The notes under the pieces were generated by a model that was not told the DNA's origin, did no database searches, and saw only the letters and a program-made list of their open reading frames with translations. Of a stretch of 64,000 nt of DNA, positions 15,661 to 61,546 are shown in pieces (within the stretch, counting starts at the first letter, position 1; every line of letters starts with the position of its first letter). The stretch spans positions 62,001 through 126,000 of the forward strand of contig KZ537990.1 of NCBI GenBank assembly GCA_000934665.2, read 5' to 3'. The position numbers and the translations under genes were made by a program. The DNA is from Catajapyx aquilonaris (lineage: Eukaryota).

Positions 15661-16347
15661 CGGAGACTATTTGGTTGATAATATTGTTTGCTTTGTTGCA
15701 TCTTGTTTGTGTGGCCAATATTGGCAAAGAATGATGTCCTAATCATGTAACTTGACAATAAATCTTACATGAAACCAGTAGGTACATATTGTTGACTCTC
15801 AATACCTATCTAATACAAATAAGCCATAGACCATGGAGAAATCACAAAATATGACTGATCTTTTTTTAATTTGAACTTATGTGCTGGGGAAAATGATCCA
15901 AACATTCTTAATATTGAGGAAGAGACTTTGCATATTATATTTATAAAATGGGATGAAGGTGGGCATAAAAGGAAGGGTCAGTAGAGGCCGAAAGGTGGAC
16001 TGAGTAAAGTGCAAATACTGGACTGTAGTATATCCGTAGAACTCTGTCTTGTAGTGGGCTATTTGTAGATATCTGCGCAATCCATCGTGGAAAGGATCTG
16101 TGATTAATAAAACTAATATCAATGAATTTCTTCTCTGGTGATTAGATTAAAGACAAAATGTGACTAGAGGGCAAACGCCATCACTTCCATGAATGATGTG
16201 TAATATTTGTTATCATGAGGTTCTTCCCCGCAGACTCTGTCTTCAAGGGTACGGCATACTATAAAACACTGGCTGGATAGAAATTATAGTGTGGTGAAGT
16301 GTGTGAAGTTAGTAGCTACTCCGCATCATTCGTAAGCTTAACCAACA

Positions 16348-17732: not shown

Positions 17733-18286
17733 GAGAAAATTTAATATGACTGCTGTTTATGCCCAGTTTTTTTCCCAATTTTTGCTCAATTCTCTACCAC
17801 GACAGATAAAGCGAGTAGAGAACTACCAATATTCTTCTGAAATAAATGCACATTAAGAATAATGGCGTAACATGACTTTCATTATTAGTGGCATTTGCAT
17901 TTTGTCACACTTTGTTGACAGCAGTGATGTTTAAAAATGGAGTGAAGGTGTCAGGAGAGAGCGATTACATTGCAGATAATGTAAAATCCAATGTTATATC
18001 ATGCTAGTCCTGGCGAGGTTGGTTTAAGAGTCATCGAACAAGATAATAATGCACCTGATAAAATTATATCAGTGGATTTCTTTGAGATCATAAGATTAAA
18101 TGACAAATAACGCGACTTCAGGGCAAAGGCTTATATACTTCCAAGAATGTTACATAATTTTTTACTTGGGTTCTTTCCCGCAGACTCAGTGTTCAAGAGG
18201 CTAAATCACTGGCTAGATAGAGACTGATATTACCATTCAGGTGTATAGTTGGCTGCTTCATTCGTAAGCTTAACCAGCACCGCACC

Positions 18287-19676
18287 ATGAGTAATTGTGT
18301 CGAAGTAATTTTTGCATGTTTCTTTGGCACAATCGCAGTATTTATTATTTTCGTATCACCGCAGATTTATTCACATGTATGTTCTTCATACGCGGATTGT
18401 TGTAAATACGATTGGAAGGATGCGGAACTGGAAAGTAAGGATAACGACCTATACGTTTTTCTTCGCTTCACGTTCGAGTGCTAAGCATGTGTTATTTTCT
18501 TGCAGAATTAAAATCAAACCTAAAGTACAAAGTGTATGGTCAACATTTAGCAGCAGAAATTGTTACGACTGCAATAACCAAAATATCTAAAGTAGCAATG
18601 CCTGAGAAACCACTTGTGTTGTCATTTCACGGTCCGACTGGAACAGGGAAAAATTTCATCTCAACGTTTATAGCTGATGCCATGAAACTGCGAGGTATGA
18701 AGAGTTACTCGGTGCATCTTTTTATATCGCCACTTCACTTCCCACACAAGAAGCACGCCTCAATGTACAAGGTTAGTAAGCTTTAAAACTTTTCGTAATT
18801 AACGCCTCTAATGAAATAATATAATCGCAGGAACAGCTGCGAATGTGGGTCAAGGGCAACGTGACCCATTGCCCTTATTCTGTATTCATATTCGACGAGA
18901 TGGACATGATGCCACCGAATGTCATAGATGGAATTACACCATTTTTGGGCACTTATAACAACATTGAAGGTGTCGATTATCGCCATGCCGTTTTTATTTT
19001 CCTGAGCAATTCCGGAGCAAGTGCCATTACAGATCTTATACTAAAACATAAGGAAGATGGCTTCTCAAGGGATCAAATAACTTTACGAGGTGAGCAGTTT
19101 GGATTGTTCCACATTAAAGGATGATTTGAGAAATGAATGTGCAAGTGTAATTTAATATGCGCACTACCTTTTTTGAAGAAAAAAAATTCTTAAATATGTT
19201 TGATTTGACACAAGCATTAAACCAGGTCAGCGCATTTTTGTTGTAATTATACTAATAATGAGTTAATTATCACCGTTTTTAAAGATTTTGAACAGCTCAT
19301 GAAAAAAAGTGCGATGAATGAAAACGGTGGACTGCATATGGCTGATGTCGTCGGTCGAAGTGGAGGAAGCACAATCAGTTATTACATTCCAATGATGCCT
19401 TTGGAGAGAGATCATGTCCTTCTTTGCATCCAGGATTACATGCACAACTGATATAAATACACTGCTTCAGTAGCAGACATCAAGTGAGGGAAAATAATTA
19501 ACAAGTGCATGAAAATGAGAGTAATTTTGCTTCGTTTTTGCAGTTCGATTGCAGATTCGATGATTTACTGGCCAGAAGGAACCAACTACTTTTCGGTCAC
19601 CGGTTGTAAGGAAGTGCCCGAAAAGGTCGATCTCTTAATGAGTCGACGTAACATTCCAATGAAGGACGAACTTTGA
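18287..19676 (+). CDS. Torsin: Torsin family AAA+ ATPase, copy 2, ends KDEL, with in-frame TGA at 19449-19451 (young pseudogene, null allele or readthrough); exons 18287-18434, 18506-18771, 18831-19089, 19285-19483, 19544-19676
   Basis: Same exon structure and motifs as copy 1. QDYMHN*YKYTASVADI aligns to QDYIRKTYKRGVTGEDI; the downstream exon is intact (GCKEVPEKVDLLMSRRNIPMKDEL). Confidence 0.85.
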
Positions 19677-20802
19677 TCGAAAAGCCAGGAAAATCTAAAG
19701 GGATTGTTATTATTCTGTTGCTTCCAGATACTTTCCCCACAATTTTTGCCCCATCAACATTTAAAAACAGAAAGAGCATGTTCCGGGTGTTAATTAACGA
19801 TACTGACCTAGGCTGAGAACATCTGGTTAACACTATCAAACCACAGAGTGTTCACACATCTCTGCAATTTTCCATCCAGTCACTTCCACCACTTATTGTG
19901 ACAATTTCTGAATAAATTAAGTTACCTGTAATCACGGCAATAAAATTCCTCATTACAGACTCACTAAATTACTTTTCTTAAGAATGCAATGTGAAAAATA
20001 GTGTTAACACTCTTCCTGCTAAGCTCCCAGCTTGTGCAGCTTCCTGCAGTTATGATAACCGAGTAATGGCATCGCAGTGTCCTCTAATTGGATGTCGCAA
20101 GGTCAACAGTGCACGGAATGAAACATTTTACGTGAACAGTTCGAAACGTGGTGACCATGGCGATCATTTCCAAATATTCTGTTTACATCACAATAAAAAT
20201 TCGGAAAACTCGTTCCCCGCTCGTTCCTTCCTCAGAAGCGCTTGAAAATTGGGGTACCGTATCTTTAACTTAATCCAGTTTATCTTTTTGTTTGGGCATT
20301 GACATCGGTGGATCAATAATTAATTATTACCTAGGTATTAGTTATTGAATCTAATTTTTTCAACATGCGGTTTAAATTTTTATCGCAACAATATTGGAAA
20401 ACTTTATTGCCAATATTATTGAGGCGACTACATTAACAAGCGTTTGGCACAGAAAGTGTTTTTGTAGTTGGTAAATTTTGCAATCTACTCTCCAAATCTT
20501 GCGGAAATATCCCGAGAGCAATGCAGGTTTCATTTTACGGCTAATTTTTTAAAATTGCTAAAAACTGCGATTTTTTAGCAAAGAAGAAATCACTATTTTG
20601 GAGGCCATAATTCGATATTTTGGTATATCTTTTAAACATAAGTACCAGCGTCTCAATATGTGGTAAAATAGCTTCCCATCACATGAATAAAATTTTGCAA
20701 TAATTGTTGTAATCTTCTCGGCAGCCTAAATTTGCGACCTTCTGCCGGACTGGATGAAAATATATTCAGTGACAATAAGGAGTGGCCTGATGAATGAATT
20801 AA

Positions 20803-20992
20803 GGTGCGTGTACATGTGAGCAATTTGATCTTGCGATGTCATCGCCGAGCGGTGCATCGCCATAGTAACCCGAGTAACCAGTATTGTTTATTGAGGCGAC
20901 AATCGATTGTCACTTTCACTTCAAACAATATTGGTTACCCGGATCACTGGGCAATGCATCGCGCGATCAGATCGCTCGCATGTAAACACACC
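20803..20992. mobile_element. Palindromic MITE-like element (~190 bp) flanked by TTAA (Harbinger- or Kolobok-like)
   Basis: Termini GGTGCGTGTACATGTGAGCAATTTGATC and GATCAGATCGCTCGCATGTAAACACACC; internal inverted arms GTAACCAGTATTGTTT / AAACAATATTGGTTAC; TTAA at 20799-20802 and 20993-20996. Confidence 0.8.
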
Positions 20993-21840
20993 TTAAAGCT
21001 GCAGAATGGGGGCAACACATGCACACACTTGTTACCGAAATATGGAGAATAAGTACAATAAGTTCATTTTGGGAGAAAATACGTGAACAAAACACAACAT
21101 AATATTATACCAAATTATACAGCATTTGCTATACCGTACGGTACCATGTCCTGCCATGAGTTCGATTCATTACTTCATAGTCGAGTTGTGTTTTTTTTAT
21201 CGCAGATAAGGTCACGACCTGGCAATTATTTTTACTGGAATTTATATTTATCTGCAACCAGCAGTTTTTTTACTGATGAGTGAGAGGTAAAATGCACTCA
21301 TTTTTCTTTTCTTTGAAACCCATAGAGAGTATAACTACTGTTCATTGCTTTAACATTCTCATGAGCACAAAATTACTTATTGATCCAAGGAACATTTATG
21401 TCCTGTTCGTATAAAACTTACAAGTATAGTTGTAGTGAAAAATCGGCACTCTTCAGGACAATATTAGGCTTCTCACGCCAAATCATTTCAACGCAATTAC
21501 TCACCATTTTTACCTTAACTTGGAACAACCAACTTTGTTGTTCACATTCATAGTTCCTTTCCTGGAAAATAAACAGCATCATCAAATGTTAAGTATTTCA
21601 ACCATTTGCCAAACAACAATAGGGTGATTTATTTCCAGCATCTACATGGGATAGCAGGAAACAGGAAAGTGCCACAACGAGTTATGGGTGTCTTCTAAAC
21701 CATCCATCCCGACACGAGATTGGCTTCCTGATGTTTCAGTTTAGCCCAGGAAAGCGTATTTCGGAAAAAAGAGCATTCTGCAGAATGGACGGTTTGTTCG
21801 CCTAATGGCCGTTCTCGGGGTTTGAGCCTAACATAACTAT

Positions 21841-22840
21841 CCAAACTGCTCACCTCACGAGGTTATTTGATCCCTTCACAGGCCATCTTCCTTGTGCTTC
21901 AGATCTGTAATGGCACTTGCTCAGGAAGATAAATACAGCGTGGGCGATAATCGACACCTTCCACCTTGTTGTATAGGTGCCCAAAAATGGTGTAATTCCA
22001 TCTATGACATTTGGTGGCATCATGTCCATCTCATCCAATAACGGAAGAAGGGCAATAGAGAATGTTGCCCTTGACCCACATTCGTAGGTGTTCCTGCAAT
22101 CATGTTATTTCATTAGAATCTTCGTTTTCCATATAGGTTTTATAGCGTTCTAACCTTGTACCATGGGGCATGCTAAATGTGTGGGAAGTGAAGTGGCGAT
22201 ATAGAAAGATGCACCGAGTAACTCTTCATACCTCGCAGTTTCATGGAATCAGCTATAAACGTTGAGACGTAATTCTTCCCTGTTCCAGTCGGACTGTGAA
22301 ATGACAACACAAGTGGTATCTCAGGGGTTACTACTTTAGATAGTTTGGTTATTGCGGTCGTAACTATTTCCACTGCCATATGTTGATAGGTTTGATTTTA
22401 TTTATCCAAGAAAACAAGAAATACTGAGCATTCAAACATGAAGAATACTGTTAGATCTGAAAAAACCTAGGCTATCCTAACTTTCCAGTCATATTTACAA
22501 CAATCTGCAAGTGAAGAACATGCATATGAATGAAGCGCTTCATTGGTATAAAAACAACATATGCTTTAATCATTAAGATCCAGGAACTTATGACAAGAAT
22601 TACCTCGTATGGATGCATGTTGCTGGTTAAGTGTACGATTGAGCAAGGGTGTATCCAGGGGGGGCAACTGCCTTGCGATTGAAGCAGCCAACTTCACGTA
22701 CCTGAATAGTAATATCAGTCTCTATCTCGCAAGTGATTTAGACCCTTGAACATCCGAGTCCATGGGAGACAACCTAGTCTGAGTGTAAAAAAATATATTT
22801 AACATTCCTGGAAGTGTGAGCGTGTTCCCTCTAGTCACAG
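21841..22840 (-). pseudogene. Inverted torsin pseudogene most similar to copy 2 (upstream region and exons 1-3 only)
   Basis: PLVLSFHSPTGTGKNYVS, FPHI* stop, deletion of the KYKVYG segment, frameshifted DEMDMMPPNVIDGITPFLGTY exon (22093-21854); exons 4-5 not found. Confidence 0.9.
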
Positions 22841-23329
22841 CTTATCTTTTAATTTTGGTTCCGTTGCTAGTTAATGCGTACTGCACCTTTAAAATGTGGA
22901 GGGCCGGATGCTGGCATATGAGGGAAAAACAACAAAGTGCATGAGTGTTGCACCTGGATTCTTACTCTGACGGGATTTGATCACCTACTGCACATGGACG
23001 ATGTGTTAGGGGACCAAGGCAAGGGGACCAGAAGCCCTCAAACTGACTTTTACATTTAGAAGCTGGCGGAACAGATGTGACGTCACGAAACTTTGACGGC
23101 GCCTTAAGCATTAACTACGCAAAGGCGCCCGAAGGTAATTGCACATCCCAACATGAGTTTTGCGAGTACTATCAGTCTACCTGGCCATTTGGCATTAGTT
23201 TCCCTTCACCTTGTATAATGATGACACCCTATTAATATGGTATCTGTACATTAATTACCAGTGTAATCATTCAGAAATTATCACAAGAAGTTTAAGTAAA
23301 TGGCAGTAATGGGATGAACACTCTGTGGT

Positions 23330-24058
23330 TTGATATGACCAGATCTTTTGTCAATAATTGTTAAACTTAAACTCCTGCATAATTATATAGTTTAGGTAAT
23401 TACCAAAAGGGCCCAAAAATGGTCTAATTCCATTTATGACATTTGGCAGCATCTTGTCTATCTCGTCGAATATGAATATGGAGTATGGGCAAGAGGAAAC
23501 GTTTCCTTTAACCCACGATCGCAGTTGCTCCTACGATTAAATAGTTTTTATTAATAATCAATTTCAAATAAATGTTGCGGCATACTAACCTTATAAAGCG
23601 AGGCGTAATTTTCGTGTGGGAAGTCAGGACCTTTAAAGTGATGTACGGAGGAACTCTTCATGCCTTGTGGTTTCGCGGCATCAGCTATAAACGTTGAGAT
23701 GTAACTCTTCCCTGTTCCAGTCGGACCTTGAAATAACAGGATCAGCGGTCTCTCCGGCAGAATGTTCTGTACTCAATCAAATCATTGGAGTGATTGTTTG
23801 CTCATTGCGGTCATAACAATTTCCTCTGCAATATGTTGCCCATACACTTTGGAATCAAGTTTCACTTTTAAATCTGCAAGCAAAAGAATGCGCTATTTGG
23901 CATAATACCCACACTTTTGTATTTGAACATAACGAGTAATAAATAGGCTTACTTTTCAGTTGCGCATCATGACAGTAGCGTTCAGAGCAATACCTTCTAC
24001 CTAAACCATCAAAATCACGAATCCATGTGCTAATTATCATACAGAGAAATTGACACAT
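23330..24058 (-). pseudogene. Inverted torsin pseudogene most similar to copy 1 (exons 1, 2 and part of 3)
   Basis: MCQFLCMIISTW...YCHDAQLK; exon 23873-23590 reads KVYGQHIAEEIVMTAMSKQSLQ*FD*...GPTGTGKSY; exon from 23530 reads EQLRSWVKGNVSSCPYSIFIFDEIDKM, then truncates. Confidence 0.9.
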
Positions 24059-31803: not shown

Positions 31804-34800
31804 TTAGGCCTCCTGCGCCTGTTCGGTCTTTACCTTGTCGCCAGGCTTCTTGGACCATTCGGGTTTCTCCGCCTTTTTCTGAAATTGCAAGCAAAATTGT
31901 TGCATAACTTCGCAGTTAGGGCTTACTCCGCAATGTGAAAACAAACTTCGACGCCATTTTGATATCGTGATCACAAAATGGCGCCATTCTAGGCTTAAGA
32001 CTGATTAATCATGACAAGTGAGGCAAATCACAAAATAGTAATTTTTCAATTGACATAAATTATCATAGAATACATTTGGCAGCCATTTTGAAGTCATGAT
32101 CATGAAATGGCGCTAGGCCTAGGCCTTTTCTCGATGATGAGATAAACATGTCGAAAACTTTACCCCCTTGTCATCGTCGTCCATGGTGAACTCCTTCTTC
32201 GCAACCTGCTTCAGCTGGTTGCTGAACTTGAACTCAGTGGCCTTCTTCTGCAGTTTGGCGAAAGTCTGCTCGTACTTGGACACCTTCTTCAGTGTTGGCT
32301 TCATGCTGGAGGAAGTAACAGCAGTAATAATTGTAAGGTGAGGCAGCATACACAAGAGAAACTGTCTTATTTGGAAGTGTACTTACAACTTTCCGCGTCG
32401 ACTGTTCACGGCGTCATACAGTTCGCTGATCTATATGTGAACAGTGATGAAAATATGTATTAAAATTCCATGCAGTTGTGATATCAGCTGGATATTATTT
32501 GTCAGTCAAATTGGTGAAAACTACTTTCAAAATGGTGTATTTAGAAAAAAAAATGTACTTTACTTGAAAAGTGTCAGAAATTAAAACTTGCGCCTCGGGA
32601 ATAAGAGCAATATAAATGATGCAAATATATTGGGTGAATAACATAAGGTACAAAAACACAAAGCTATCGCATGCATCATAGCAACATTGACTGCAAACCA
32701 AGGAAGATTGGGAATTATCAAGTGTATGTGGCATGGTAATAGCATAATTATGTAGTGGACTAAAAATGCATGTTGCACTATTGTGTTAACCGTGTTTCAT
32801 TAGATAATAATCCAAAGTAGAGCATCGTATGCAATGTCAAAATATTATGCAGTTTTACCATTAATCAATAATTCATCATTGCTTGTGTTTTAATATTAGT
32901 TTCATGTCTCAAGTGCATGTGTTACAAAATACTACGAACGTGTACGTGACGCTATCCGCCACTTTTGTTGTCTGTGGAAGATTATTATGGGAGGAGAAAT
33001 ATTTTTCTTATAAACGGGCAATCTACAAGCCAGCTCGCAATATAAAAACTGCTGTCGTTTTATCCTCGGCTACTGTTGACAAACAGCAAAAAAGTGATAA
33101 ACAGTGTATTATGCTCTACTAAAAAAAAAACTGTGCGTGTGTCCTAATAGTGTCGAATAGGGGGCAGAGTAAGGATACGAGGAGTATAGTACAGTATACT
33201 ACTCCTCGAAAAAAAACCATGTCGAGTGACAACCAACATGGCGCACAACATATAATACAAAAACTGCTGTTCTACTAATATACAAAACAAAAATAAAGTA
33301 ACAGCCAGGAAGCTACAACAAAGAGTGGTCAGCTTTCATGGAGGGGGATTGCCCACAATGAGAGGCAAATATATCTTTTAAAAATGACTGTGTTATTTTA
33401 TTATAATTTGGTGGCTGGATGGCAAAAGCTTATATGCACAGAAACTCAAATTGCACAAAGAGAAGCGTTTTAAAAAAAGGAATGAACATGACATGCCACA
33501 ACCATATCAGTTTCTGACATATAGCCACCTAATTAATTATTATGTATTAGAATGGAATTATCGATTCACATGGATTTGGAATACAAAGTCGAAGTTTGAC
33601 ATTTTAGCTCTTGCCAAAAAATAAAGGATTATGCAACTGCCTTAGGAAAATGTGGTTACAAAAATAAAATCCAACATTTTATTTTCATTTCGGCCATGCA
33701 AAAAAAGTGCCATACTATATCGACACTACTATTTTGAGAAATAAATAAATAAATGCACGCCTGGTGATGGGAGGTAAGAATACAGTAATACCAATTATTA
33801 CAAAACCCAATTAGTACCGATTAGGGACATAGTGAAATAGTGCTATACGGTATGTACAGTCCCTTAAGTAGTTTTAGTACACTATGATCAACAAAGGGCC
33901 GACAACTTAATTACTTCAATTGTAACAAAGTTGTAAAATTAAATTCAGATTATTTCTACTGATTCTCGGATCTTCCAGTTTGTTTTCAATAATAATATTA
34001 ATAATAAATTTAGATAGACAGCTACACAAGAGCTGGTTGGAATTCAATTGCATACTTCAAATAAAAGTGCAGAAGTTCTGTCAAGTTGTAAATTTGACAG
34101 TAAGCTATTATTTTGACTACCCCAGAATCTTTGTTTGCTACATTTTCTTAACTGGTATCATACACTACAGAAGGTAGAATTAAATTTTTGAACAATACCT
34201 TACCATGAACCTTTCAGATAAATCAGAAATTTACATCACTGTCCTCTACTAATAAATTATGATCGTAAAATTTCTCACAATTTTAGGTGGTTCTCTTCCG
34301 GAACAATATCTATAAGTTTCGCATCCTATCCAATGAAATAACTAGCAACATTATTACGCCACATATAATAATAATTTTTTAGCTCGAATCGGATAATTAT
34401 TCTGGGCTAGTCAAAGCAGATCCGGACAAAAATCTGGCTTGTAAGCTTGGATCAAAACTTACCTCCTTCTTTTTCATCACGAAAAGAGACTGTACTTCTT
34501 AATCTCACTTTCTCACTTCATATTCCAAATCCCATATATCTGATTCTCATATTTGCGCGCTAAATACTCCTCGCGGATATGCTCGAGCTCCTCTACAATG
34601 AAACGAATAGAGTAGTCAACAAACACAAGTTACATTGTTTTGGTACTTTTTTAAAAAATTATTTGACTTTTCTAGTATTATTTTAAAATCCATCTTCCCT
34701 CCAGAAAGCATCTCTATGAAACAGTGTCCACTGAAACGCAAAATAAATGATTCCATTCTGGCCACAAATTCTTCCAAACTCCAATAAATATCGCATGCAT

Positions 34801-37222
34801 CTCAAATAATTGGCGCAAAATAAAAATAAACAACAAGAGAAGAGAGAGAGATAGAAAAAAAATCAAAGTGCTCGATTTTTTTTGTTGGATTACCTCAAGC
34901 TCCTTGACTATACACTGCCTCTCAAGATCATATTTGTCTTCCTCAATTTTGCACATTTTTGCATAGTATTCTTTGATAACCGATTGAAGTTCACCTATGC
35001 GAAGAAATAACAGACATTTAGGTTACTATTCTAAACCACGTGTTTACTATTTTACTATTTTGGCTCCGTCAGAGTCTTCATTGTGCAGAGGTAGACAAAA
35101 TAACCCACCATTAAATTATACGACGCGACTAAAGTTGATACACCAAAAATTGTGGTAATCCAAAAGACAACAAAAGTGAAAAATATAGCATAAAAAACTA
35201 ACAAAGCAAGACGACAAAAAACACAACTACCTCCAGCATCACTAACAATACCAGTGCTGTAAAAAAAAGTAGACAAGACACATTGTGTTGTTACCGTTGT
35301 CAGAGACGAGACCATCCTTCACGTGTAGTAGAAAAAGAGGGCAAAGTTTAAAATGTCAGAGAAGAGCAGTGGGGGGAAAAATATTATGAAGAGTATGAAA
35401 AAAAGCAGTTCCAATTTTTAGTGCATCGAATTTTGTTTAGCATCCGCCTTACAAACCTCGTGTTCCTTCTTTTCCACAATAACCTCAATATCATATTTGG
35501 TCGTCTCAACAGCTGCAATTCTATCATGAAATTCCTTACAGAACTGACGCAGCTCATCTGGTAAAAATGGTTACAAGAGTCATGACTTGTTTTACAAGTA
35601 GTGCCACGAGCATTTTCAAAAAAAAAGCATACAAAGGTATAGCATTTTTCACATTGCAGAAGAGAAATATGCAGAAAAATGAAATAAAGTCATAATGTGC
35701 AATATATTTGTCTCAGAATGAAACACGAATTAAGGGACCATATTTTTCCATTAAATGTAGTGACATTGTGAGACGAACATGTCCACCGTGTATTATGTAC
35801 ATTACTCTCTAAATTATTTCTGAGCTATTTTTAAAAACTTATTCCCCCATTTGACTCATGCTTACATTTAAAAAATGAACTCAAAAAGATACTAAAAATT
35901 GTTATTTATTAAGATGATTTGGAAGACCTGAAACGCTTACAAAATAATTTAGAGAGTAGAGTGTGCTGTGTTTTTATCCTGTTGCATCACCAAGTGTCCT
36001 GTCATGAACATACCACAAATTTCCAAAATATGAAAATTTATGCTAAACTTTAAAAGCAAATGCAGGTGTACCTTCACTGGCGCCGTCAACATCCTTTGCC
36101 TTTCCGCATCTCTGCTCAATGCATTTCCTCCTTTCGGCGGACTTGCGCTCCTGTTCCTTCTTCAATTCCTCTGCGGCCTTCTTTCTCAACAAAACCTGCA
36201 ATGGACACCAAAGTAAAAACACTGCCCTTACTCTTGTCCAAAATATTGCAGATTGAACACTCACCCTGAGCTTCTTCTTCCTGTCAGGGGTCATGAAACC
36301 CTTCTTTCCTTTCTGGGCCGCTGCAGCCTCCTCCAACCTTTTCCTGACCTCCGCCTTCTTCCTATCGATGTCAGCCTGCTTCTTCTTCAGCTTTTGGTGA
36401 AAAGTACAAGTCAGTCATCACGTCCACAATAGTCAAATCTACAGGTCACATGGGGACTACATGCATTTTAAAAGTGTTACCAGAATGCAATGAGTACACC
36501 CAATCTGCCTTCTTTCTCTGCAAAAATCATTTACAATAATTTATTGCAATGATGTAAGCAATTATATAAGTAGAGTATTTGCAAGTATGCATAAATTATT
36601 CATAGCAATGTTCCAAGTGCCCCAAGGACCACAGTTCAGACAACCGTGTAAAAGTATGATGATAAACAAGTACTTCAACTGTCCAAAACAAAAGATAAAG
36701 GCGGTGAAAAAGTTTTTGACTGCCTGTCATTGGAAGCGATTGCCAACGTTACTTGTCCATTAGACTCAAGGGCTTTTTCTCCGCGCCAACTTTAGAACAC
36801 GAATATTGCATAAGTTCTCACTCCATCGACGAGCCAAAACTCAAAACAATTTGGTGCATTACTTAAAGCTCAAAATGTTTACATAGCTCTAATCTCAAGT
36901 ACACATAGGTCTACTACATTTTATCAAGTGTTCGAGCGTGTAATTTTTTTGTAAGAGTTCGGAATTTTTTTGCGAGAGTTTTTGCAGCGCGGTTGTATTT
37001 TTGAATCCGCAGTGTTGAGAAAATAAGGCAGATGAAACCGGATGTGGGGGAAGAGAAATATGTGAAGACGTTTCCAAGTCAAGTCTTGCCATCATGCAGA
37101 AAATATCTTCAAGCCACTCAGATACTGAAAAAAGCAGAGGAAGAAATTAATTCAGATTTTATCTGGAATAAACACATTTTAAAGCCATTTTATTGAACTT
37201 ACCTCACAGCTTCGTCCGCCAT
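31804..37222 (-). CDS. wupA: Troponin I paralog 1 (divergent), ~208 aa; exons 37222-37208, [microexon 36517-36500], 36390-36265, 36195-36072, MXE a 35557-35457 or b 34994-34894, 32430-32387, 32305-32164, 31878-31804
   Basis: [52 protein letters not shown] and KPEWSKK; the frame closes with either 101-nt MXE. Confidence 0.92.
34496..34592 (-). pseudogene. Decayed third mutually exclusive exon (MXE c) of TnI-1
   Basis: 97 nt instead of 101; EELEHIREEYLARK, then frameshifted ESDIWDLEYEVRK*D*E; homologous to 44808-44708 and 57707-57607. Confidence 0.85.
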
Positions 37223-42170: not shown

Positions 42171-45100
42171 TTAGGCCTCCTGTGCCTGTTCCCCGCCTTT
42201 TACCTTCTCTCCAGCCTTCTTTGACCATTCGGGCTTGTCCTTGTCCTTTTTCTGGAAAGAAGCAACAAACACACATGTTTATTACGGGAATATATATGAT
42301 AGATCAAAAATCTATAATCCAAAATGCGTAAGCAATCGATTTTTTCCATTTTTAAAAATGTGTGTGAAGCAACAATATTCTCATAGGAACTTTGTGAAGA
42401 AGAATCCTGAAAAATAACTTGTTTTCTTGCTTGTACAAAGATAGACAGCACAGTTAATGAGTCGTATCAGACAAACTTTATCTCTTGTTTGAAAATATGC
42501 CTTTGGTCAGTGCGGTGTCCTTTTCATTCATCGCGAATTTTAGTTTAGGCGTTGTGCCAAGGCGACACCGCGGTATGCCTGCTGTGTTCTGAGCCAACAA
42601 TTCGAAAATGACTAATTATTGTCGGTGCTTCACACAGCATAATAATTAGGCGCCTTCTGGCAGCTTTCGTGAAATAAATTGGGTGCACAAAATAAACTGC
42701 TTGCCACACACCTTCTTGATGTCCTCCTCCTCCATGGTGAACTCCTTCTTCTGGACCTGCTTCAGCTGGTTGCGGAAATTGAACTCAGCCGCCTTCTTCT
42801 GCAGCTTGGCAAACTTGTTCTCATACTTGGATACCTTCTTCAGGGTTGGCTTCACGCTGAAAAGTTCGGGGATGAAAATTATATCTGATGGATACAGTAT
42901 ACCCTTTACAGGAATTGAATAAATTGTACTTACAACTTTCCACGAAGATCGTTGACAAGTATGTTCAGTTCGTTGATCTGTACAAATGATGACAAAAAGT
43001 GTCAATTATTTGCCCTAGAGAAGTGTAGTGTAAAAACATATCAATTTTGTTTACGTACTTTGGTGCTATGTTATAAATAACACTAGCTGTAATAGTTCTA
43101 AGAATGCTATAAGATTAGTGGCAATAAGAAAGGCTACAGGATATAGGATAGTCATGCGCTGCTGAATCACGTGCAGCCATTTCATGCAGGCAATAGTAAG
43201 TGTGATTATAATTACCATTAATAGATAGAGTGAAATATGTGACATAAATAATAACGCATGGAATGTCGAAAAATAGTTGCATGTTTTGCTTTCACGTTTC
43301 GCAATAACATATTGACTCTTAGATGTGTGTACTGCATGTTGACCAGAATCATATTAACAAGAGATACGTTTTAGCATGTGTTTATCTACATTAATAAAAA
43401 AACAGATGCCAAAATATGGCGACTGGCGCAAAGAAAATTAACCTACACATGTTTTTCCTTGACTTGTATAGTTTGACTTTGAAAATTGAATGTGCATCAG
43501 AAATAAGTGTTCGAGTGATCAATTTCGCATTGAAAATTTGGTGCTATTGGTGGTGCAAAATGTAGATGTGAATATGCTGAGGAGGGAACTACAGTAGCCT
43601 ACTAGAACTATCTGTTCGCAAGCAACCTATTGGGCAGGTGGTTAACATGGTGCGCAATCCAAATAGTATGTCAAGAAACTGTGCCTAATTTGCATACTGA
43701 GAAGAAAAAGAAAGTATAGTCAGCCAGTTGCAGCACAGAATGGTCAGGGTTTTATGGAGGATAAGTGTGAAATAATATTGTGATTAATTTTTGTATTAGA
43801 GGATTTGGAATACAAAGTGTAGGCATATATGTACAGTTAGCTCTTCTAAAGAAATAAATTCCTTTAAAATTTATTATGCAAAGTATAAAAATTTAACAAA
43901 TTTGATTTTCCTCATGCATATAAGAAGTAAACTGAAATAATTCTAGTTAAAAATTCTATAATCGCGATTGGTGTACATGAACAGAAATATTGCAACAAAC
44001 TTGCCTTCAGTTAGTATATAGGCTACTAGAATGAAATAAAAATTACTACGCATTAAGAAACTTTAAGGGGTTCATTTCTAGCAGTAGCATTTTGTAACAT
44101 TGTTTTATTTCAGGGTACCACCGTATCAGTTCAAGGTTTCCAAACGTCGCAATATAACTTATATGCCCTTGGCAACTTGTCATTGATACACTTTAATACC
44201 TAAGATCAGGATATTAAAAGAGACATGTAATTTTTTTCTGTTCATACCGACATGCAACTAAGGCTGACCTTTTTATATCGAGGATGTACTGTCTTTAATT
44301 ATTATTAAGCATAGACTTTCAACTTTACTTTGGATCCTGCACCATATTAATCAGGCTTGACATTTGGGGGGTCAATCCACTGGATTGTACCAATATCCAG
44401 TTTTTCTTCAAGTCGAATAATCTACTGTATGAGACTAAAAACCCAGAAAGCAAATCTTCTGGCCAGCCCGATTAATATTTTGTGACCTTTATTATTTTCT
44501 GCAATGTTAAGGAATATTAAAATAGTCCCTTATAAGAAGCTTTACAGATTTACATGTCACAGATTTTTCCTTGTTGAATATGTTTTGTTAAATTAAAACA
44601 TTTGACATATTCTTAATTCGGGCAGGTCAAGAAGATGTGAACAATATGGGAATTATATTAGATTGAGAATAATTTTTTATTAATATTCCACGTAATGGAA
44701 ACTGTACCTCGTGATCTTTCTTTTGCACTTCATATTCCAAATCCCATTTCTGCGATTCACAAGACTGAATGCGCTTATAATACTCCTCAATCACTTGCTT
44801 GATCTCGCCTACAAAACGATAGCAAATGGTACATATAAAAAATGGACAAAAAAATCCCATGTCACCGATCTAGATTTTTTTTTAAATTTAACCTCTCCAT
44901 ATATTAATTTCTGTGAACGGATAGAGTCCACTGAAATTGCAATATTGATACGAATCAATTCTGGCCACAATCCTTTGTAGATGTCAATGAAGGTCATGCA
45001 ACTTGCCTACTGATTGCAGCGAAAATCAGAGCGAGAGAAGAGAGAGAAGAGACACTAAAAAAAAGCTCGCGAAAATTTTTGCAAAAATCGTCGTTACCTC

Positions 45101-48100
45101 TAAATCCTTTACTTTATTCTGCTGCTCAAGATCATAAGTGTCACCCTCAAGTTTGCAACATTTTTCGTAGTACTCTCGCACAATAGACTGAAGCTCCGCT
45201 AGAATGCGAAAAAAATGCCAAAATTTACCATGTTGGTATAATTCTTGCTATTGCGCGATGCCACTTCCCTTGGCAAACATTCTTAAAACACAAAATAAAA
45301 TCTCAAAAAATTGTAAACATACAATATGTACAAATACCGCATAAAAACACAAAAAAAATCCAAAAAATGCAGCATACAAAGCAAAGTCCACAAAAAAACA
45401 CACTTTGTTGTTACCAACCCACAAATTTCTGCGTAATAAAAATACAAAAAAAGGCAACATAATGTTACCAGAATTATGTCAACTGTCAGAAAAAAGGCCA
45501 TCCTTCACATGTAGTAGAGAAAGAGAAAATTGTGTTTAAGAGTAAGACAGAGCGGCAATAAAATAAAAGCTTGAAGGATCAAATAAGCTGTATTTTGGGT
45601 TTTAGTGCTGAAATGATTTTTTTTTTTGCTTGCATCATCAGAATGGCCTTACAAACCTCGTGATCCTTGAATTCCACTTTAACCTCTAAATCATACTTAG
45701 ACGTCTCAAGAGCAGCAATTCGCTGGTGAAATTGCTTACAGAATTCACGAAGCTCACCTAATAAAACGATTAGAAAGTCACAACAAAATATTCATAGAGC
45801 AACACAACAAAAAAATACCACCCTCCAAAAATAATATTTTCTCTCCATTTGAAAAAAATACCTGTGTCCGATGTATATGTGAAGTCCTGGAGTGTAAAAA
45901 AGAAATTATGGCCAGAATATTCGCAGGCATTTAATTGTAATTAAATGTGTTTGACCGGCCAACTTAAATTATTATAGGAAAACATGCGCCAGATCAGAAC
46001 ATAATTTTGGCGCTTTTTTGCTAGAATAAAAATCCAAAAATTCCGGGCTCTAATTTTTGATAGAAAATTATCTCGCGAATCTTCTCATATTCGCGAGATT
46101 GTTTCTGATATTTTATCATTTTCTATCAAACATTAGAGCCCGGAATTTTTGGATTTTTTTTTATTCCAGCCAAAAAAGCGCCAATGGTTTAAAATGTTTT
46201 CTCTGAAATGAATCAGTTATCGCGACAGTTTACTGTTGCCAACAATAAATTTTCTGGCTCTTTTCCAGCCGAAAAATATTTCCTAAGAGGAGGTGCAACC
46301 GGGGAATAATTAATAATTCGTCGATTTCAGCTGATTTTTAACCAATAGAGAGAACATTTAGTTGCAATTCATTAAACACTCTTTTCATGTGGTCTGCTCT
46401 GATCTGTCGCATGCAAAGTATGTAATATTTTTTTATTGAATTGCAAGGCATTACCGTCGCCAGCACCATCGAAGTTCTTTGCCTTTCCGCATCTCTCCTC
46501 AATACACTTCCTTCTCTCTGCGGACTTGCGTTCCTGCTCTTTCTTCAACTCCTCAGCGGCCTTCTTTCTCAACAGGAGCTGCAGAAGAAAAGCACATTAT
46601 TGTTGCGACATGTTCTCTCGGAGAATTCCTGAGCGGTCGTTGGTCTCACCCTGAGCTTCTTCTTCCTCTCGGGGGTCATGAAACCCTTCTTTCCCTTTTT
46701 GGCAGCAGAGGCCTCCTCCAGCCTCTTTCGCACCTCCGCCTTCTTCCTCTCGATCTCAGCCTGCTTCTTCTTTCTCTCCTGATTGTTTGCACAAGGTGAG
46801 TTAAAGTATTTCAAAAATTGAATTTGCTTTACGGAACAACCAGCTGCAAGCACTTTTTTTTGTAATGAAAAAATAGCAATGCACAAGCTGCTACTCGTTC
46901 CTATTGGGTTATGCCAAATGCTTTCTGATGTAAGCTGCAACCGGCCTTTCCGCAAATACATGGTTACTCTAGCTACTATTGTAGTTGACTACAAATATAA
47001 CACAGCCTAGATTTGCATAACAATCAGAGCCTAGCGAGTGCGGTCATTTTGATGGCCATTTTTTTTTTAAATAAAGAAACTGCTGCCTGATTTAGAGAAA
47101 TGATTGATGATAATATCTCGCAAGCTTCAGATATCAAATCTGAATTATCTGAATTATTAAATAACTAAAATTCAGACAATTGGGACTCCGGCCGTTATGC
47201 AAGGGCTTTAAATACAAAATGTTGTTAGTATAATGTATGCATATGAGGCCTTTACGATTATATTAACTATGCCATACAATCTGTATATTTTCATATCAAT
47301 TTTTCTAAACATATTAATGCGATCCACAGTGATTTTAAAGCACGACTATTCCATTACTGCAATAATACATAGCATTATTTTTAGCCGCCGCTTTGCTGCC
47401 ATTTACCAAAATTTAATTAATGCATTTAATGCCCATTAACATTAAGCTAGGCGCTAAAAGCTCATTGAGAATTTAAAGCATTTAAGCAAATTAATAAACG
47501 GTGTCCAATTGTTTTGTTTGAATCTATCACATCATACAAAATAGTCCCAATTTTTTTCTAATTTCAACTACGTAAATTGAGGCAAATTGCACAATTTCAC
47601 ATTGAAATGGCTAATACAAATAACCTCCAATTAGAGGTAATATTATAAACGGTTTTCCCAAGGTTCAACCATTGGAAAAATTTTCCTTTCGACCTCATAT
47701 GCTCAGCACGTGAATCAAACCCTGGTCCTTGGAGAGTGTCCCAAAAAAATCATCCTCAACATCATCGCGCCTCGCCCACTTTATCGCAAACTTTGGCTCC
47801 TGCAGACGGGTATTTATAGCCTATCAAATCGTTCTGGCCTCGAGGATGCTCCCCACCAGTTACAGACTTTTTTTTTTGCCGATATATTTATGTGTGCCCA
47901 TGTGGTTAGTGTTCACACGTTCGGTAATCTTACGTGCCTCTTCCACCCTCTTCCTCTGAAAAAAAGAAGGAAAAAAAATATATTAATAGACGTCAACAAT
48001 TGCAGATATGTTAGTTCTATACCGTTCTCTCCACTTGTTATTGCCATACGAAAAAAATGAGACAACATATAGTCAAAAAACTGTGGGTTTCAAACAAAGG

Positions 48101-55702: not shown

Positions 55703-58700
55703 TTAGGCCTCCTGTGCCTGTTCACCTCCTTTTACCTTGTCGCCAGCCTTCTTCGACCATTCGGGCTTGTCGGCCTTTTTCTGAAACGAAAACCACGATT
55801 CAATTAGCTGTCATGTAATGTACAGAGAGCTTCATCCCACACACATGTCCTTTTCCTATAAAAACATGAAATTGCTCATGTGCGTCAATCCATTAAGAGC
55901 GAAGGTGTTCAAAAGAAGTGGAAGAACAACAAGGTCTATGATGATGTTTTGGCCAATCTAAAGTGACTTTCAATTCTGCTCCAAAAATGGAACCTTTTTC
56001 CAGTCCGTCCCTAATGTACTTATGATTAAAAGCAGTAGAAATGTTACCCCTTTGTCGTCATCCTCCATGGTGAACTCCTTCTTCGGGACCTGCTTCAGCT
56101 GGTTTTTGAAGTTGAACTCAGCCGCCTTCTTCTGCAGCTTGGCGAACGTCTGTTCGTACTTGGACACCTTCTTCAGGGTTGGCTTCACGCTAAGAAGTTA
56201 TAATAAATTGGCTGTAATTGAGCAGCTTAGAGGGTACTGTATGTCGAAGAAAGAAAAAAAAAGTTACTCACAACTTTCCTCGGAGGTCGTTCACTTGTAG
56301 GTTCAAGTCGTGGATCTACGCGAATGGTAATGAGACATTAAAATCTGGGATGTAACCTCGGGTAAATAACAGTTGCTCAAATAATGTTGCTTAACATTTT
56401 CTGATAATTTAGCCGTAAACCGGCTTAAGACATTCGATTTTTAAGAAGCACAAAAATAAGCTATAACAAAGATGGAATGATAGCGCAAAAAGCAACACAA
56501 ACTAAGCTTTGCTACATTACGAAGTACACATAAAGGAGAAAATAAAGATTACACAAAAGGGAAAATAATTTATACACAAAAGGGGAAAATAATAATTTAT
56601 ACACGCAAAGAAAAATATAAATAGTATGGCATGCTCATGCATGTAAGATATTGCAATGACAGGAACTGCAGGAAAGGAATGACTTTATGAAAGTGGCTGC
56701 AAATGAATCAGATTTTCCCTTGCTGAAATTCGACACGAAAAGTATTTGAATGGAAAAAGCAAGGTGATTCATTTGATGCTCAGAAAAAAGGGTTATTATT
56801 TGCCAAAAACACGTTTGGAACTTCGCATAGTTAGCAGTCATGTAAGACGACACATTGCATCACTTTTGTTGTCTAAACGCATCACAAAAATATTGTAAAA
56901 AAATCGTTGTGTACCATACCAGTAAATGTACCAAATCTGCCAAGTAGTCATTTGAAAAACTGCTCTGTGACAGTGAAAAAATATGCATTGAAGTTCATGT
57001 GTATGGGGGGGGGGGATATTGGGGGGAAATATTGGAGGGCTTTATGTCTATATGGGGGGCATCAAACTAGAGGGTTTGGGGGAGAATTACCATAACAGGC
57101 ATCAGACTATAGTTCTACAGCCGGTCAAGAACAGCTTGTGGAACATGTTGCCAAAATACTACAGTGTGAAATACAAAATTCAGAAATGAACCGTAATATT
57201 GGTATTTAATGGGGACAGGGAGGCTCAAAAATACTTCAGTGGTTGGAATATACTCCAATTTCTAGTTCGCGGAAATCGGAATAATTTCATTTCCTTTATA
57301 GAACTTCAGTGTTTTTCGGAAATGATAATTTTGGCCATCCCAGAACTCGGTATTATTTTTCAAAGGGCTATGTTTGATATCTCTGTAACATCTACAAACG
57401 TTCAGTAAAAGGTCACGGGTTATTTGCGCGTTTGATTATTATTATTATGCTGCAAATCTTTTTCCAAGCTGCTCAAAGAGAACTGGCACAGGGACATTAA
57501 AAATAACATCTGTAAGCTTTGACGTCATTCGGAGATGGCCAAAAAAAATTTGAGAGCAAAACTCGTGGTGATGGTCATGTCAGATAATTCCTTTGAAAAA
57601 CTGTACCTCAAAGTCCTTCTTTTTTACTTCAAATTCTAGATCCCATTTCGACGATTCGCACGTTTCAATGCGCTTAAAGTAGTCCTCAATAATCTGCTTG
57701 AGGTCGTCTAGGAAAATAAAATTGGATCATGACAAAGGAAATAATTATTATGAGACTTTTGCCTCTTGCATGTATAATTTACACATGAAAATATGGTGTG
57801 TCGGAAATACATTCTGGCCACAATATTACTTTTCAAGGGCGATATTCATATACTGAGGGGGAAATAGTTATAAAATATTGTTATTTCAAATAAAAAAATA
57901 TTCGAGTCCTCTGAAATAATCGCTAAGTAACTTATGAAGGTAGCTTTCGCCATATTGCGTGATATTATTTCCTTGGCGGTCAACTTGTACTTTTTTAGGC
58001 TCGTTTAGGCTATTATAAAACGTCGCAACACAAAATAGCCTATTCGTAGAAAATATTTTGTAAAATGTTGATATGTAGCGCAGAATCCATAGATCCAAAA
58101 GACAACAAAAGTGTAAAAAAAGACAAAAGCCTGCTGCATGAAAAATTATTTGCAAAGCAAAAAGCCCACAAGACACATACCCTCGCACCAACCCAATGAA
58201 AAAAAGAAGCTGCCAGACATCACAAAATATGTGGTTACTACACTAAGAAATATTCAGTACAAAATAAAAATCCAGCCGCTCACGAAAAAAAATAATCAAA
58301 AAAGCACAATGGTCAAAGAGACAGAGCGACAAAAATATGAGCAAAAAAAGCTGCCGAGTCGCTTAAGTGTCTCATGCCATCCGGAATACAAACCTCTTTG
58401 TCCTTCTTTTCCACAATAACCTCAATATCATACTTGGATGTCTCGACAATATTAATTCTGTCGTAATATTGCTTACAAATGTCACGAAGGTCATCTGTCA
58501 AAAAAGAAACGGTTAAATGACAATAGATTATGATTCTTTGACTCACATAATCATGGCCAGAATGATTCATATACTCATGTAATTATTTTACTGCTAAGGA
58601 TGTTGCAATGAGTAAAACATTGATATGATTTCAACTTGCCAAATCAAAAGGTAAGACTGTTATCTGCAAAAAAAATACAAGTTTTTTCTGTGCATGGGCC

Positions 58701-61546
58701 ATAATCCAGAAATTGGAAAGTGACCAATTTCGTTCAATTTTGTGTACTCTACGTACATCGATCAAATTGAAATGCATTGTGAACGTTTGTTTTCCTGGAG
58801 TGTGAAATATTAATTATTGAAACACGGGCATCAGAGTCACTGATGAGGACAGACAGTCCATACCATCACTGGCTCCTTCCACGCTCTTTGGCTTTCCGCA
58901 TCTCTCCTCAATACACTTCCTTCTCTCTGCGGACTTGCGCTCCTGTTCCTTCTTCAACTCCTCAGCGGCCTTCTTTCTCAGCAAAACCTATCAGGACCAA
59001 AATTGGGTTGAGATCTGATCCGGTACACTTTTCAACATCCAAACTCACCCTGAGCTTCTTCTTCCTCTCAGGGGTCATGAACCCCTTCTTTTGCTTGCTG
59101 GCAGCAGAGGCCTCTTCGAGCCTCTTTCGCACCTCAGCCTTCTTCTTGTCAATCTCCGCCTGCTTCGCCTTTTTTGCCTATTGGGCAGAGCACACATGTC
59201 AATCTGCACCTGTTGCGCATGGGTTAGTGGACAAACAGCGGTCAGATGGAGTTGGCAGCGTGAGTATTTCAATCACTCTTCAATTATGGTGTCTACAGTG
59301 TTTGCCAATTGAAGTGTCCCTTTCAGAAGAAGAAAAATCGCAAAAAGTTGTCAATAGTTGTTGACTTTCAGCCAAAAAATAATTATAACTATATATATAG
59401 CTCAGCCTAATATTAGCAAATAATTCTATCTGCAGCATCCAAGTAACGAGCAGCTTATGGACATCTGAAACGGACACATCAATTGTTACCCAATCTGCAC
59501 TGCATGAAAAATTTACAAACAATCACACATGCATATGATATTTTTTTTGCAAATTGTTTCATAGTGAAATAAGCTTTGCGTGATGTGTTAATCACAATCC
59601 ATTACCTCGGTGACATTGTGAAACTAGCACATATCTCCCCAAGTTACGTGATGGATCTCGGCAACACCTGGTTTTTCCATAGGTGGCCTTGGAGAGAATG
59701 ATCACGTGTGAACATGCAGTTAGTGGTTCATACTCCCTCGGTACTCTTATACGGTTCCTCTTCAGCCCTCTTACTCTGAAAAATGAAGAAGAAAATAGCG
59801 TCACTAATTATCCAAATATGACAATAAATTTTTAACAAAATGTTCACCCAACAACTACTCGAGGACATAAAAAAATTACAAAAAATTCAGTCCTCAAAAT
59901 ACCAAAAAGACATCATATAAAAAAACTACACAAATAACTACATACGTGCGAAAAAGGAACAAAAAAAACCTACAAAATGAAGCGAAAGGACGCAATATTT
60001 ACCGATTTATTTAAAGCAGCGTTGCGCTCTGGGGGGGCAGGGACTAAGGGGGGCACACACAACATATCTTCTCTCCAGAGGGCCTTTTTGGAGGGCAGGG
60101 TCAATGTTTTGTGTGGGGGGTTGGGGGGTTGTTTTGGAGGGTTGTTTTGGAGGGTCAGAATATGTATGGACGCTGTCTGAAAGCATCTCAACAAGGGATC
60201 GAGAATATAAAATAAATAGTGATTGGGACAAGCCTAATTACTGAGTGCGATAGTGCAGGGAAATAATATTCGTGCTCAGGCTTGATTCTGAGTAAGCCTA
60301 TATGACGCAGTATTTTGCCCTTTTACCAAAGTGTGTATGATGTCTTTTTTTATTAAAAAGTACTAAGAAAGTCGGACTACGAACTACATCAAGATTTATT
60401 ATATGACGTCAGTCCTAACATTAAAAATTGTAGTGGAGTTGTATTGTTTGTAGCCTACTGTATAGGCATTGTTACAATTTTAAACTTTTCTGACAGCTGT
60501 CATTAAATATAATCACTGCAACAACAAAGGATAAAGTAACAATTTGCTATTCATGTACAGTACGTCACTTAAATATCTCTTTGGAATTAGTCGGAACAAT
60601 AGTTTTTTTTTGCAATATTGGCTTTGGCAGGCAAAATCCCACGAAATTGTTTATAACTACGTCTACAATACTTCAAGCACTTCTTAGCCTTCGAATTTTT
60701 AAAAGCAAGCGAAGTTTAAGCATACTTAGAGCATATTGCTCAAGTTAGAAACCATAGTGGTGGTGGTAAACAAATACGAGTACAACATTACAGTATTATT
60801 AAAAGATGTCAATTCCAAAAACAATTAAAGTTTGCAATAGGCATTGCCATGTCCTTCGAGCAAAATGGTATTGTTGTGGAATTAAAATCTCTTCACACCT
60901 TCAAGCCTTATTATACTGTAGTCAAAGCCGTCGAGTAGTGAACACAAAAATGTATTAATTAGTCAACTTGTAATGTCAAAAATGTAACTGCAAAAGAAAC
61001 AGCCATTTAAAAAGCGCGTCCACACCAAAAAATGTGGGAATAAAAATATACGTGACGTCAAACCATGCTTGTTCCAATGTACCTTCCGTTTTATGTAACG
61101 TTTGTTGTATCCCAAGAGGCAGAGAAAACGCACACAAAAGTTGGGGTTTGTGAGAAGGGATTGAGATGCTGGAATGAGAAAGGATAATTTTTTTTTTGCT
61201 GCTGAGGAATCTCCATTTTTTTGTTTTCATCTGTTGTGTTTCTTGTTGTTCAACTCGAGAAGAGGGCAAAGAAGACACAGAATCATCCCACAATTGCCCC
61301 CAGTTTTGTTAACCCACACCGTCATGCAGGCGTGGTGTTGAATTCGTCGAGTTCGCCGATAGAGTACTGAGTGTTTGAAGGTTTGGAGAAATAGAAAGGA
61401 AGAGCGAGAGAGAGAGAAAGGAAAAGAAAAGAAGAAAAATACATAAACATTAATCAGTACGAAATTTTTTGACTAATCTACATACCTTTCTTCAATTTAA
61501 AAATTTCCATCTAAAATATGACTTACCTCACCTCGTCGTCCGCCAT
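55703..61546 (-). CDS. wupA: Troponin I paralog 3, ~210 aa; exons 61546-61532, [microexon 59775-59734], 59177-59049, 58987-58864, MXE a 58494-58394 or c 57707-57607, 56315-56272, 56189-56048, 55780-55703
   Basis: [48 protein letters not shown] and [21 protein letters not shown]. Confidence 0.95.

Follow-up and report, generated by a model that had tools for sequence, protein, structure and literature searches.

Candidate exon-selecting RNA pairings in three tandem troponin I genes of Catajapyx aquilonaris

Graveley reportedly set out the docking site/selector system of Dscam1 exon 6 in 2005. The system is described in two papers (PMC11802352 and PMC4691838), and the second of these (Yue et al. 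2016, PMC4691838) adds exon 4 of Drosophila srp, where the pairing is bidirectional, upstream pairing favouring one exon and downstream pairing the other, in each case by approximation. The exons described as controlled by RNA pairing in passages of PMC11802352 belong to 14-3-3, MHC, SF1, DNM1, PLP1 and ATE1, and the word 'troponin' does not occur in that paper; neither wupA nor TnI occurs in PMC4691838. Competing structures are reported for Dscam, MRP, Mhc, srp and 14-3-3 zeta in the accessible part of PMC6071210, where wupA is a four-exon cluster and is not among these genes. A full-text search of main articles turned up no publication in which RNA pairing is connected with troponin I or wupA, in line with an earlier first-pass annotation of the DNA studied here, whose author was not aware of any such description. 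We analyzed 64 kb of the Catajapyx aquilonaris genome (contig KZ537990.1, positions 62,001 to 126,000; hereafter the window, whose own positions are used throughout) and found, within the alternative exon cassettes of three tandem troponin I (TnI) genes, three sets of complementary elements conserved between gene copies. We lean towards reading these pairings as a new member of the class in which RNA pairing guides exon choice. The contractile properties of arthropod muscle are set by troponin I isoform switching, and how the alternative exons of troponin I are chosen is, to our knowledge, not known.

When the window was compared with itself, a gene present in three tandem copies emerged on the minus strand (TnI-1, TnI-2 and TnI-3; Table 1). 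All five exon translations compared matched the Pfam Troponin profile (PF00992; E 2.4e-8 to 4.8e-4), three of them above the gathering cut-off, and judged by their sequences the three genes are arthropod troponin I paralogs. We chose the name troponin I over troponin T from our own reading of the sequence. No Rfam family was detected in the window. Four-fold sites differ between TnI-2 and TnI-3 at 6/20 positions, and at 8/19 and 9/19 in the other two pairs. The introns of the paralogs are alignable nowhere besides the conserved blocks; the first-pass annotation had called the intron around the TnI-3 pair poorly alignable. In all three genes the alternative exons are each 101 nt long and fall on Pfam Troponin positions 48–80. 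The TnI-1 cassette consists of exons a and b plus a dead exon c, and that of TnI-3 of exons a and c only, exon b being absent; the death of exon c in TnI-1 had been asserted before and is documented by its frameshift and in-frame stop codons. As 101 is not divisible by three, a transcript with two of these exons, or with none, would lose the reading frame, an additional safeguard of exon exclusivity.

The first pairing (P1) joins an element of the intron that follows the upstream constitutive exon (the dock) to an element 103–160 nt upstream of exon c (the selector). Read on the minus strand, the arms in TnI-2 and TnI-3 lie where the first-pass annotation had put them, and the pairing is, as it had said, 14 bp with one G-U in TnI-2 and 15 bp with two G-U in TnI-3. 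The TnI-2 helix is in fact longer than first noted, as 16 contiguous base pairs are followed by a 2-nt bulge and then 7 bp more (dock side 45925–45903). TnI-1 retains the selector, and the equivalent dock has lost its TGGCC, again as described earlier; a residual 11-bp pairing at the homologous place has a strength at chance. The dock has decayed in TnI-1, the one paralog with a dead exon c. Given this placement of dock and selector, pairing would loop out the proximal exon or exons. The earlier proposal that exons a and b are looped out holds for TnI-2; it does not carry over to TnI-3, which has no exon b, and where the loop would therefore enclose exon a alone.

For a given selector, the complementarity of P1 far exceeds chance expectation. 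The intron between the upstream constitutive exon and exon a (hereafter, up-a intron) was shuffled with dinucleotides preserved, and the best contiguous complement of the fixed selector was scored. The real complement was matched by 0/5000 shuffles in TnI-2 and by 0/5000 in TnI-3, and TnI-1 was at chance, with 3014/5000 shuffles as good. A generic test, which counted every helix formed by the up-a intron with other parts of the cassette, was weaker and gave 16/300 shuffles for TnI-2, 3/300 for TnI-3 and 278/300 for TnI-1. When 40-nt windows were paired with each other, P1 ranked first among 8128 pairs in the TnI-3 cassette; in TnI-2 it was the third cluster among 15,753, preceded by a local repeat hairpin and a further pair. 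The best alternative partners of the dock in each gene score at most 24, vs 34 for the selector, the chance maximum being ~25–28.

The arms are also conserved between the gene copies. The selector is identical in TnI-2 and TnI-3 (14/14; 1/200 shuffles), where it is the best conserved intron block between these two genes, as well as in TnI-1 and TnI-3 (14/14; 3/200 shuffles) and in TnI-1 and TnI-2 (13/13), and it is common to all three genes. Over the 28 arm positions, TnI-2 and TnI-3 differ at one. With up to two mismatches allowed, the motif has five sites in the 64-kb window, all of them in troponin I. An all-against-all comparison of contiguous helices in each gene found only three whose two arms are both conserved between paralogs, namely P1 and the helices P2 and P3 described below, which rank 1 and 2 in TnI-3, 2 and 5 in TnI-2, and 1 and 3 in TnI-1.

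Exon use was read from contigs of X5, the one RNA-like run, with TnI-2 and TnI-3 as the region examined. No run is recorded as RNA, and four DNA runs may be from the source sample; the type of X5 is unrecorded, and its contigs derive from RNA since they carry GT-AG joints exactly at the exon borders. Among the 15 of 23 joints listed, those of TnI-3 connect the upstream exon to exon a, exon a to the downstream exon (across c), and exon c to the downstream exon. TnI-3 uses exon a or exon c, exclusively. The TnI-2 joints listed connect the upstream exon to exon a, and exon a to the downstream exon across both b and c; in X5, exons b and c and both P1 arms of TnI-2 are without cover. Two loose contig ends match, by our reading, TnI-1 exon a and the TnI-1 downstream exon. 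As these data are contigs, they say nothing on isoform proportions. The exons are homologous and equal in length, encode one and the same part of the protein and are used singly, as in a mutually exclusive cassette. An RNA-like contig (57607–58423) starts within exon a of TnI-3 and reaches the end of exon c with the whole a–c intron retained, and may represent a splicing intermediate or intron retention.

The second pairing, P2, is a perfect, non-palindromic inverted repeat of 14–15 bp whose arms are identical between TnI-1 and TnI-3. The 14-mer CACTTTTGTTGTCT has four exact occurrences in the 64 kb, as one inverted pair in TnI-1 and one in TnI-3. Arm B lies in both genes in the intron after exon c, ~530–550 nt before the downstream constitutive exon, and in both genes P2 is the top helix between its two intron regions; with arm A fixed, 3/2000 and 2/2000 shuffles were as good. 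P2 is absent from TnI-2, where 500/2000 shuffles did as well. The order along TnI-3 is dock, exon a, arm A, selector, exon c, arm B, and P2 interleaves with P1. The 10 bases directly 3' of P2 arm A in TnI-1 (35154–35163) could pair without a mismatch with the 5' splice site of exon b (34885–34894), at chance-level strength but in a notable position.

The third pairing, P3, connects the coding sequence of exon c with an intron element ~900 nt downstream of it. The intron arms of TnI-1 and TnI-2 are identical at 18/18 positions (E 4.6e-5), and 1/2000 and 3/2000 shuffles gave helices as good. P3 is absent from TnI-3 (773/2000 shuffles) and is kept in TnI-1 even though exon c is dead there. A version of 15 Watson-Crick base pairs was found in an unrelated arthropod locus (L060), between the last alternative exon and the downstream intron (5931–5945 with 7106–7120), where only one long-range helix within 6 kb is stronger. 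Its intron arm has two differences from the arm of TnI-1 and TnI-2, both compatible with pairing (G-C or U-A vs G-U). P3 may serve as a mask of exon c, as a bridge to the downstream exon or as a complement for RNA editing. L060 has two further pairs of 14 Watson-Crick base pairs, 4317–4330 with 5338–5351 and 5583–5596 with 7201–7214, which flank its third and fourth alternative exons, respectively, in a geometry that suggests looping-out.

On the sense pre-mRNA of TnI-2 and TnI-3, P1 would loop out exon a, together with exon b in TnI-2, and would cut the distance between the upstream 5' splice site and exon c from 1156 to ~420 nt in TnI-3 and from 1646 to ~700 nt in TnI-2. The shorter effective distance to the 3' splice site of exon c would give this distal exon an advantage over exon a, the proximal default. 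As the dock is removed with the up-a intron, the choice would probably be decided kinetically, by whether P1 forms before that intron is excised. P2, in TnI-3 and TnI-1, would loop out exon c, bring exon a nearer to the downstream exon and so favour a. Since P1 and P2 interleave, each trapping an arm of the other in its loop, the two would stand in opposition and could form a two-state switch like that of srp exon 4. We infer from the sequences, and by analogy with the systems introduced above, that these duplexes exist in vivo and guide the choice of exon.

Several results, set out in this paragraph and the following ones on conservation and folding, weigh against such a role for P1. The core, UGGCCA, is palindromic, and dock and selector are also 12/14 identical as direct repeats, so that two copies of the motif would be complementary automatically. 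The palindrome AUUNUGGCCANAAU could accordingly be read as a site for a dimeric protein, either an RNA-binding splicing factor or a DNA-binding enhancer factor, with the complementarity as a by-product, an explanation that we rate as quite improbable. The palindromic core would suit it, as would the confinement of the element to troponin I cassettes within the 64 kb, the conservation of the TnI-1 selector without a partner, and the presence of more TGGCCA sites downstream of exon c in TnI-2 and TnI-3. The details of the motif argue for pairing, however: its two variable positions (dock C/U, selector G/G) can pair between copies and cannot within either copy, the three non-Watson-Crick positions all give G-U on the sense transcript, where an antisense transcript would have A-C (pairing scores of 32 and 34 on the sense strand, 25 and 28 on the antisense), and in each paralog the pairing extends outside the palindromic core, on the outer side only. 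P2 and P3 are non-palindromic yet behave alike, and we know of no factor with this palindromic motif, which also counts against a protein site. The additional TGGCCA elements 3' of exon c are at 57532–57544 and 57329–57341 in TnI-3, which pair with each other (13 bp), and at 44457–44465 in TnI-2, for which 9 bp with the dock are possible. An origin of the arms as transposon ends was rejected because coding exons lie between them and the motif has no copies in the window beyond the five troponin I sites.

Conservation is similarly uneven. Taken alone, that of the dock is not significant (13/14 identical in TnI-2 and TnI-3; 29/200 shuffles). No compensatory double substitution was found among the three copies, the changes being one-sided and G-U-compatible, and the pairing energies revealed no preference for the cognate arm across paralogs, as non-cognate P1 arms pair as well as cognate arms, or better (-37.7 kcal/mol for the TnI-3 dock with the TnI-2 selector). 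TnI-2 and TnI-3 share ancestry, so their copies are not independent replicates. The TnI-1 selector is intact despite the lost dock and the lost exon c, and this persistence hints at another role. Upstream of exons a and b no significant complement of the dock was found in any gene. The docking site/selector label given in the first pass is only partly right: it fits the geometry and the complementarity of P1, but P1 has a single selector and none for exon a or b, and so lacks a defining feature of such a system, a selector for each variable exon. Competition for a shared dock is absent; in TnI-3, P1 and P2 interleave instead.

Relatives were sought with the upstream exon as query, which gave 80 arthropod-like loci from metagenome contigs. 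The P1 motif was absent from 79/80 of these, the one occurrence lying at an irrelevant place, and the P2 motif was present in 1/80 only, in an mRNA-like contig. Ten of the loci were genomic with at least two alternative exons, and nine of them were tested (L004, which probably duplicates L001, was omitted). A strong helix of dock geometry appeared in only 2–3 of these 9 other arthropod TnI cassettes, with 0/100 shuffles as good in L015 (low-complexity), 2/100 in L016 and 6/100 in L066, and the other six loci were at chance.

The arms might also be a neutral relic, that is, a palindromic intron element that was copied in a tandem exon duplication, has not yet decayed and has no function. We hold this to be quite improbable, given that the remaining introns are unalignable vs one difference in the 28 arm positions of TnI-2 and TnI-3, that the selector is identical in all three paralogs, and that the outer flanks pair past the palindrome. 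In addition, two more independent conserved duplexes lie in the same cassettes, one of them also in another species. What speaks for a relic is that the TnI-2 arms stand 148 and 150 nt upstream of their own exons and resemble each other as direct repeats, that the four-fold divergence of TnI-2 and TnI-3 is just 6/20, and that the conservation of the dock by itself lacks significance; tandem duplication of an exon with its flanking intron is proposed as a source of such elements in PMC6071210.

Folding of the pre-mRNA, suggested as a check in the first-pass annotation, recovered the helix in intron-only folds and lost it from global folds of larger context. In the former (~1.2 kb), P1 is part of both the minimum free energy and the centroid structures, with core pair probabilities of 0.94–1.0 in TnI-2 and TnI-3, and of 0 in TnI-1. 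Once the fold also covers the upstream exon and a longer downstream stretch, the probability of P1 is 0 in both TnI-2 and TnI-3. In the full TnI-3 interval (2548 nt), neither P1 nor P2 is in the free minimum energy structure, forcing them costs 12.7 (P1) and 17.9 (P2) kcal/mol, and the forced folds carry one helix or the other. The thermodynamic prediction is context-dependent and neither proves nor excludes the duplex. In the large-context folds the dock is paired locally, with weakly conserved partners (45961–45955 in TnI-2, 58706–58697 in TnI-3) that could be competitors of P1. Duplex folding of whole introns produced giant meaningless duplexes and was dropped.

A duplex that does form may have a job other than exon selection, such as back-splicing (to a circular exon a or a+b), slowing the removal of the up-a intron, or bringing protein sites together. 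Inverted repeats that flank exons are classical drivers of both looping-out and circular RNA, according to the review PMC11802352, and the persistence of the TnI-1 selector without a usable exon c, the RNA-like contig with the whole a–c intron of TnI-3 retained, and the occurrence of UGCAUG 20–30 nt upstream of the selector in TnI-1 and TnI-2 are all consistent with it. We nevertheless consider another job unlikely, since no back-splice joint is among the 15 of 23 joints listed, the geometry of P1 is exactly that of known exon-selecting pairs, and the TnI-1 dock decayed together with exon c.

If the exon-selecting role of the pairings, which we favour, is confirmed, a muscle structural gene would join the class of RNA-pairing exon choice. 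It would offer a simple test bed, with two exons and two helices in TnI-3 and with paralogs that carry different helix subsets and are directly comparable. A more far-reaching and tentative idea, to which we give limited credence, is that of a three-helix RNA code, with P1 favouring c, P2 favouring a, and P3 pairing exon c with the intron, in which each paralog lost a different helix with an exon and these losses fixed its isoform output. The losses are P1 and exon c in TnI-1, P2 in TnI-2, and P3 and exon b in TnI-3. Were this code true, P3, being common to an unrelated arthropod, would be ancient; the loss of structure, not a change of protein, would have hard-wired the isoforms, and the cluster would be a natural knock-out series for structure-guided splicing.

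Table 1 Genes, exons and pairing arms in the window. P1 arms are given as the sense transcript, i.e., the minus strand.
Feature	Position in window	Strand	Sequence	Remarks
TnI-1	~31.3–38.9 kb	(-)		window self-comparison
TnI-2	41.3–51.9 kb	(-)		window self-comparison
TnI-3	54.8–62.3 kb	(-)		window self-comparison
TnI-2 upstream constitutive exon	46455..46578	(-)		equivalents: TnI-3 58864–58987, TnI-1 36072–36195
TnI-2 alternative exon a, 101 nt	45657..45757	(-)		spliced in RNA-like contigs
TnI-2 alternative exon b, 101 nt	45098..45198	(-)		Pfam Troponin positions 48–80
TnI-2 alternative exon c, 101 nt	44708..44808	(-)		44745–44726 is the exon arm of P3
TnI-2 downstream constitutive exon	42934..42977	(-)		TnI-3 equivalent 56272–56315
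TnI-3 alternative exon a, 101 nt	58394..58494	(-)		spliced in RNA-like contigs
TnI-3 alternative exon c, 101 nt	57607..57707	(-)		spliced to downstream exon in RNA-like contig
TnI-1 dead exon c	34492..34592	(-)		frameshift, in-frame TGA and TAA; 34532–34515 still the P3 exon arm
P1 dock, TnI-2	45905..45918	(-)	ATTCTGGCCATAAT / AUUCUGGCCAUAAU	upstream 5' splice site 537 nt away, exon a 148 nt downstream
P1 selector, TnI-2	44958..44971	(-)	ATTGTGGCCAGAAT / AUUGUGGCCAGAAU	exon c 150 nt downstream
P1 dock, TnI-3	58550..58564	(-)	CATTCTGGCCATGAT / CAUUCUGGCCAUGAU	exon a 56 nt downstream
P1 selector, TnI-3	57810..57824	(-)	ATTGTGGCCAGAATG / AUUGUGGCCAGAAUG	exon c 103 nt downstream
P1 selector kept in TnI-1	34751..34768	(-)	UUUGUGGCCAGAAUGGAA	dead exon c ~160 nt downstream
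Degenerate dock, TnI-1	35707..35722	(-)	TTCATTCTGAGACAAA / UUCAUUCUGAGACAAA	TGGCC / GGCC core gone
P2 arm A, TnI-3	58100..58113	(-)	CACUUUUGUUGUCU	intron after exon a
P2 arm B, TnI-3	56861..56874	(-)	AGACAACAAAAGUG	733 nt after exon c, 546 nt before downstream exon
P2 arm A, TnI-1	35165..35179 (14-mer 35178–35165)	(-)		intron between exons a and b
P2 arm B, TnI-1	32959..32973 (14-mer 32960–32973)	(-)		~530 nt before downstream exon
P3 intron arm, TnI-2	43800..43819	(-)	CACUUUGUAUUCCAAAUCCU	20 bp with exon c 44726–44745, three G-U
P3 intron arm, TnI-1	33572..33589	(-)		18 bp with dead exon c 34515–34532

Other features of the cassettes and of the window were noted in passing. The up-a intron of TnI-2 contains a strong local inverted repeat at 46007–46184 (27-bp and 14-bp stems, -51 kcal/mol) that is absent from the other paralogs; DNA depth doubles at this repeat, many contigs diverge at 46250–46284, and it is probably a small repeat insertion. 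Approximately 130 nt downstream of exon a, a block of 28 nt is 26/28 identical between TnI-2 (45498–45525) and TnI-1 (35312–35339), and its TnI-2 copy could form 16 bp with the region 22–37 nt upstream of exon c. TnI-2 (45034–45047) and TnI-1 (34836–34849) also share a CU-rich 14-mer without any difference, ~50 nt after exon b, which in our estimation resembles a polypyrimidine-tract-binding type site. The UGCAUG elements near the selector, presumably Rbfox-type motifs, are at ~44990–44995 in TnI-2 and ~34795–34800 in TnI-1, and another is found at ~46405–46410, ~45 nt into the up-a intron of TnI-2. Elsewhere in the window, the region 14629–24010 contains four torsin-like paralogs, two direct (~16.1–19.7 kb) and two inverted (~21.8–24.0 kb), which are adjoined by a weak match to a LAP1-type activator domain at 14629–15657.

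Among known arrangements, insect ADAR targets have intronic sequences complementary to their editing sites. P3 recalls them in that an intron element hundreds of bases downstream pairs with the coding sequence of exon c, and is unlike them in that its duplex is just 15–20 bp. Troponin I is not known to us as an edited transcript.

Like the Alu-pair, FGFR and DNM1 cases of looping-out (PMC11802352), the troponin I pairings have intron arms that enclose whole exons, with predicted skipping of the exons enclosed; unlike the Alu pairs, the arms are short, unique and conserved, and are not repeats. As in Dscam1 exon 6, the P1 dock is located behind the upstream constitutive exon and the selector before a variable exon, and pairing would juxtapose splice sites and loop out the proximal variants. 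Whereas Dscam1 exon 6 has a selector for each variable exon, P1 has one selector and no selector competition; it also differs in its helix of 14–16 bp, its cluster of two or three exons and its unrelated sequence. P2 is unlike the downstream docks of 14-3-3 and of Dscam exons 4 and 9 (via PMC4691838) in having a single partner, with no competing selector set found, and is like them in that arm B stands before the downstream constitutive exon and its partner behind a variable exon. The two helices of srp exon 4 share an arm, unlike those of TnI-3, which interleave, and the two-helix arrangement occurs in one of the three paralogs, TnI-2 being without P2 and TnI-1 without P1. What TnI-3 has in common with srp exon 4 is a small cluster, here of exactly two alternative exons, with P1 as the upstream pairing and P2 as the downstream one.

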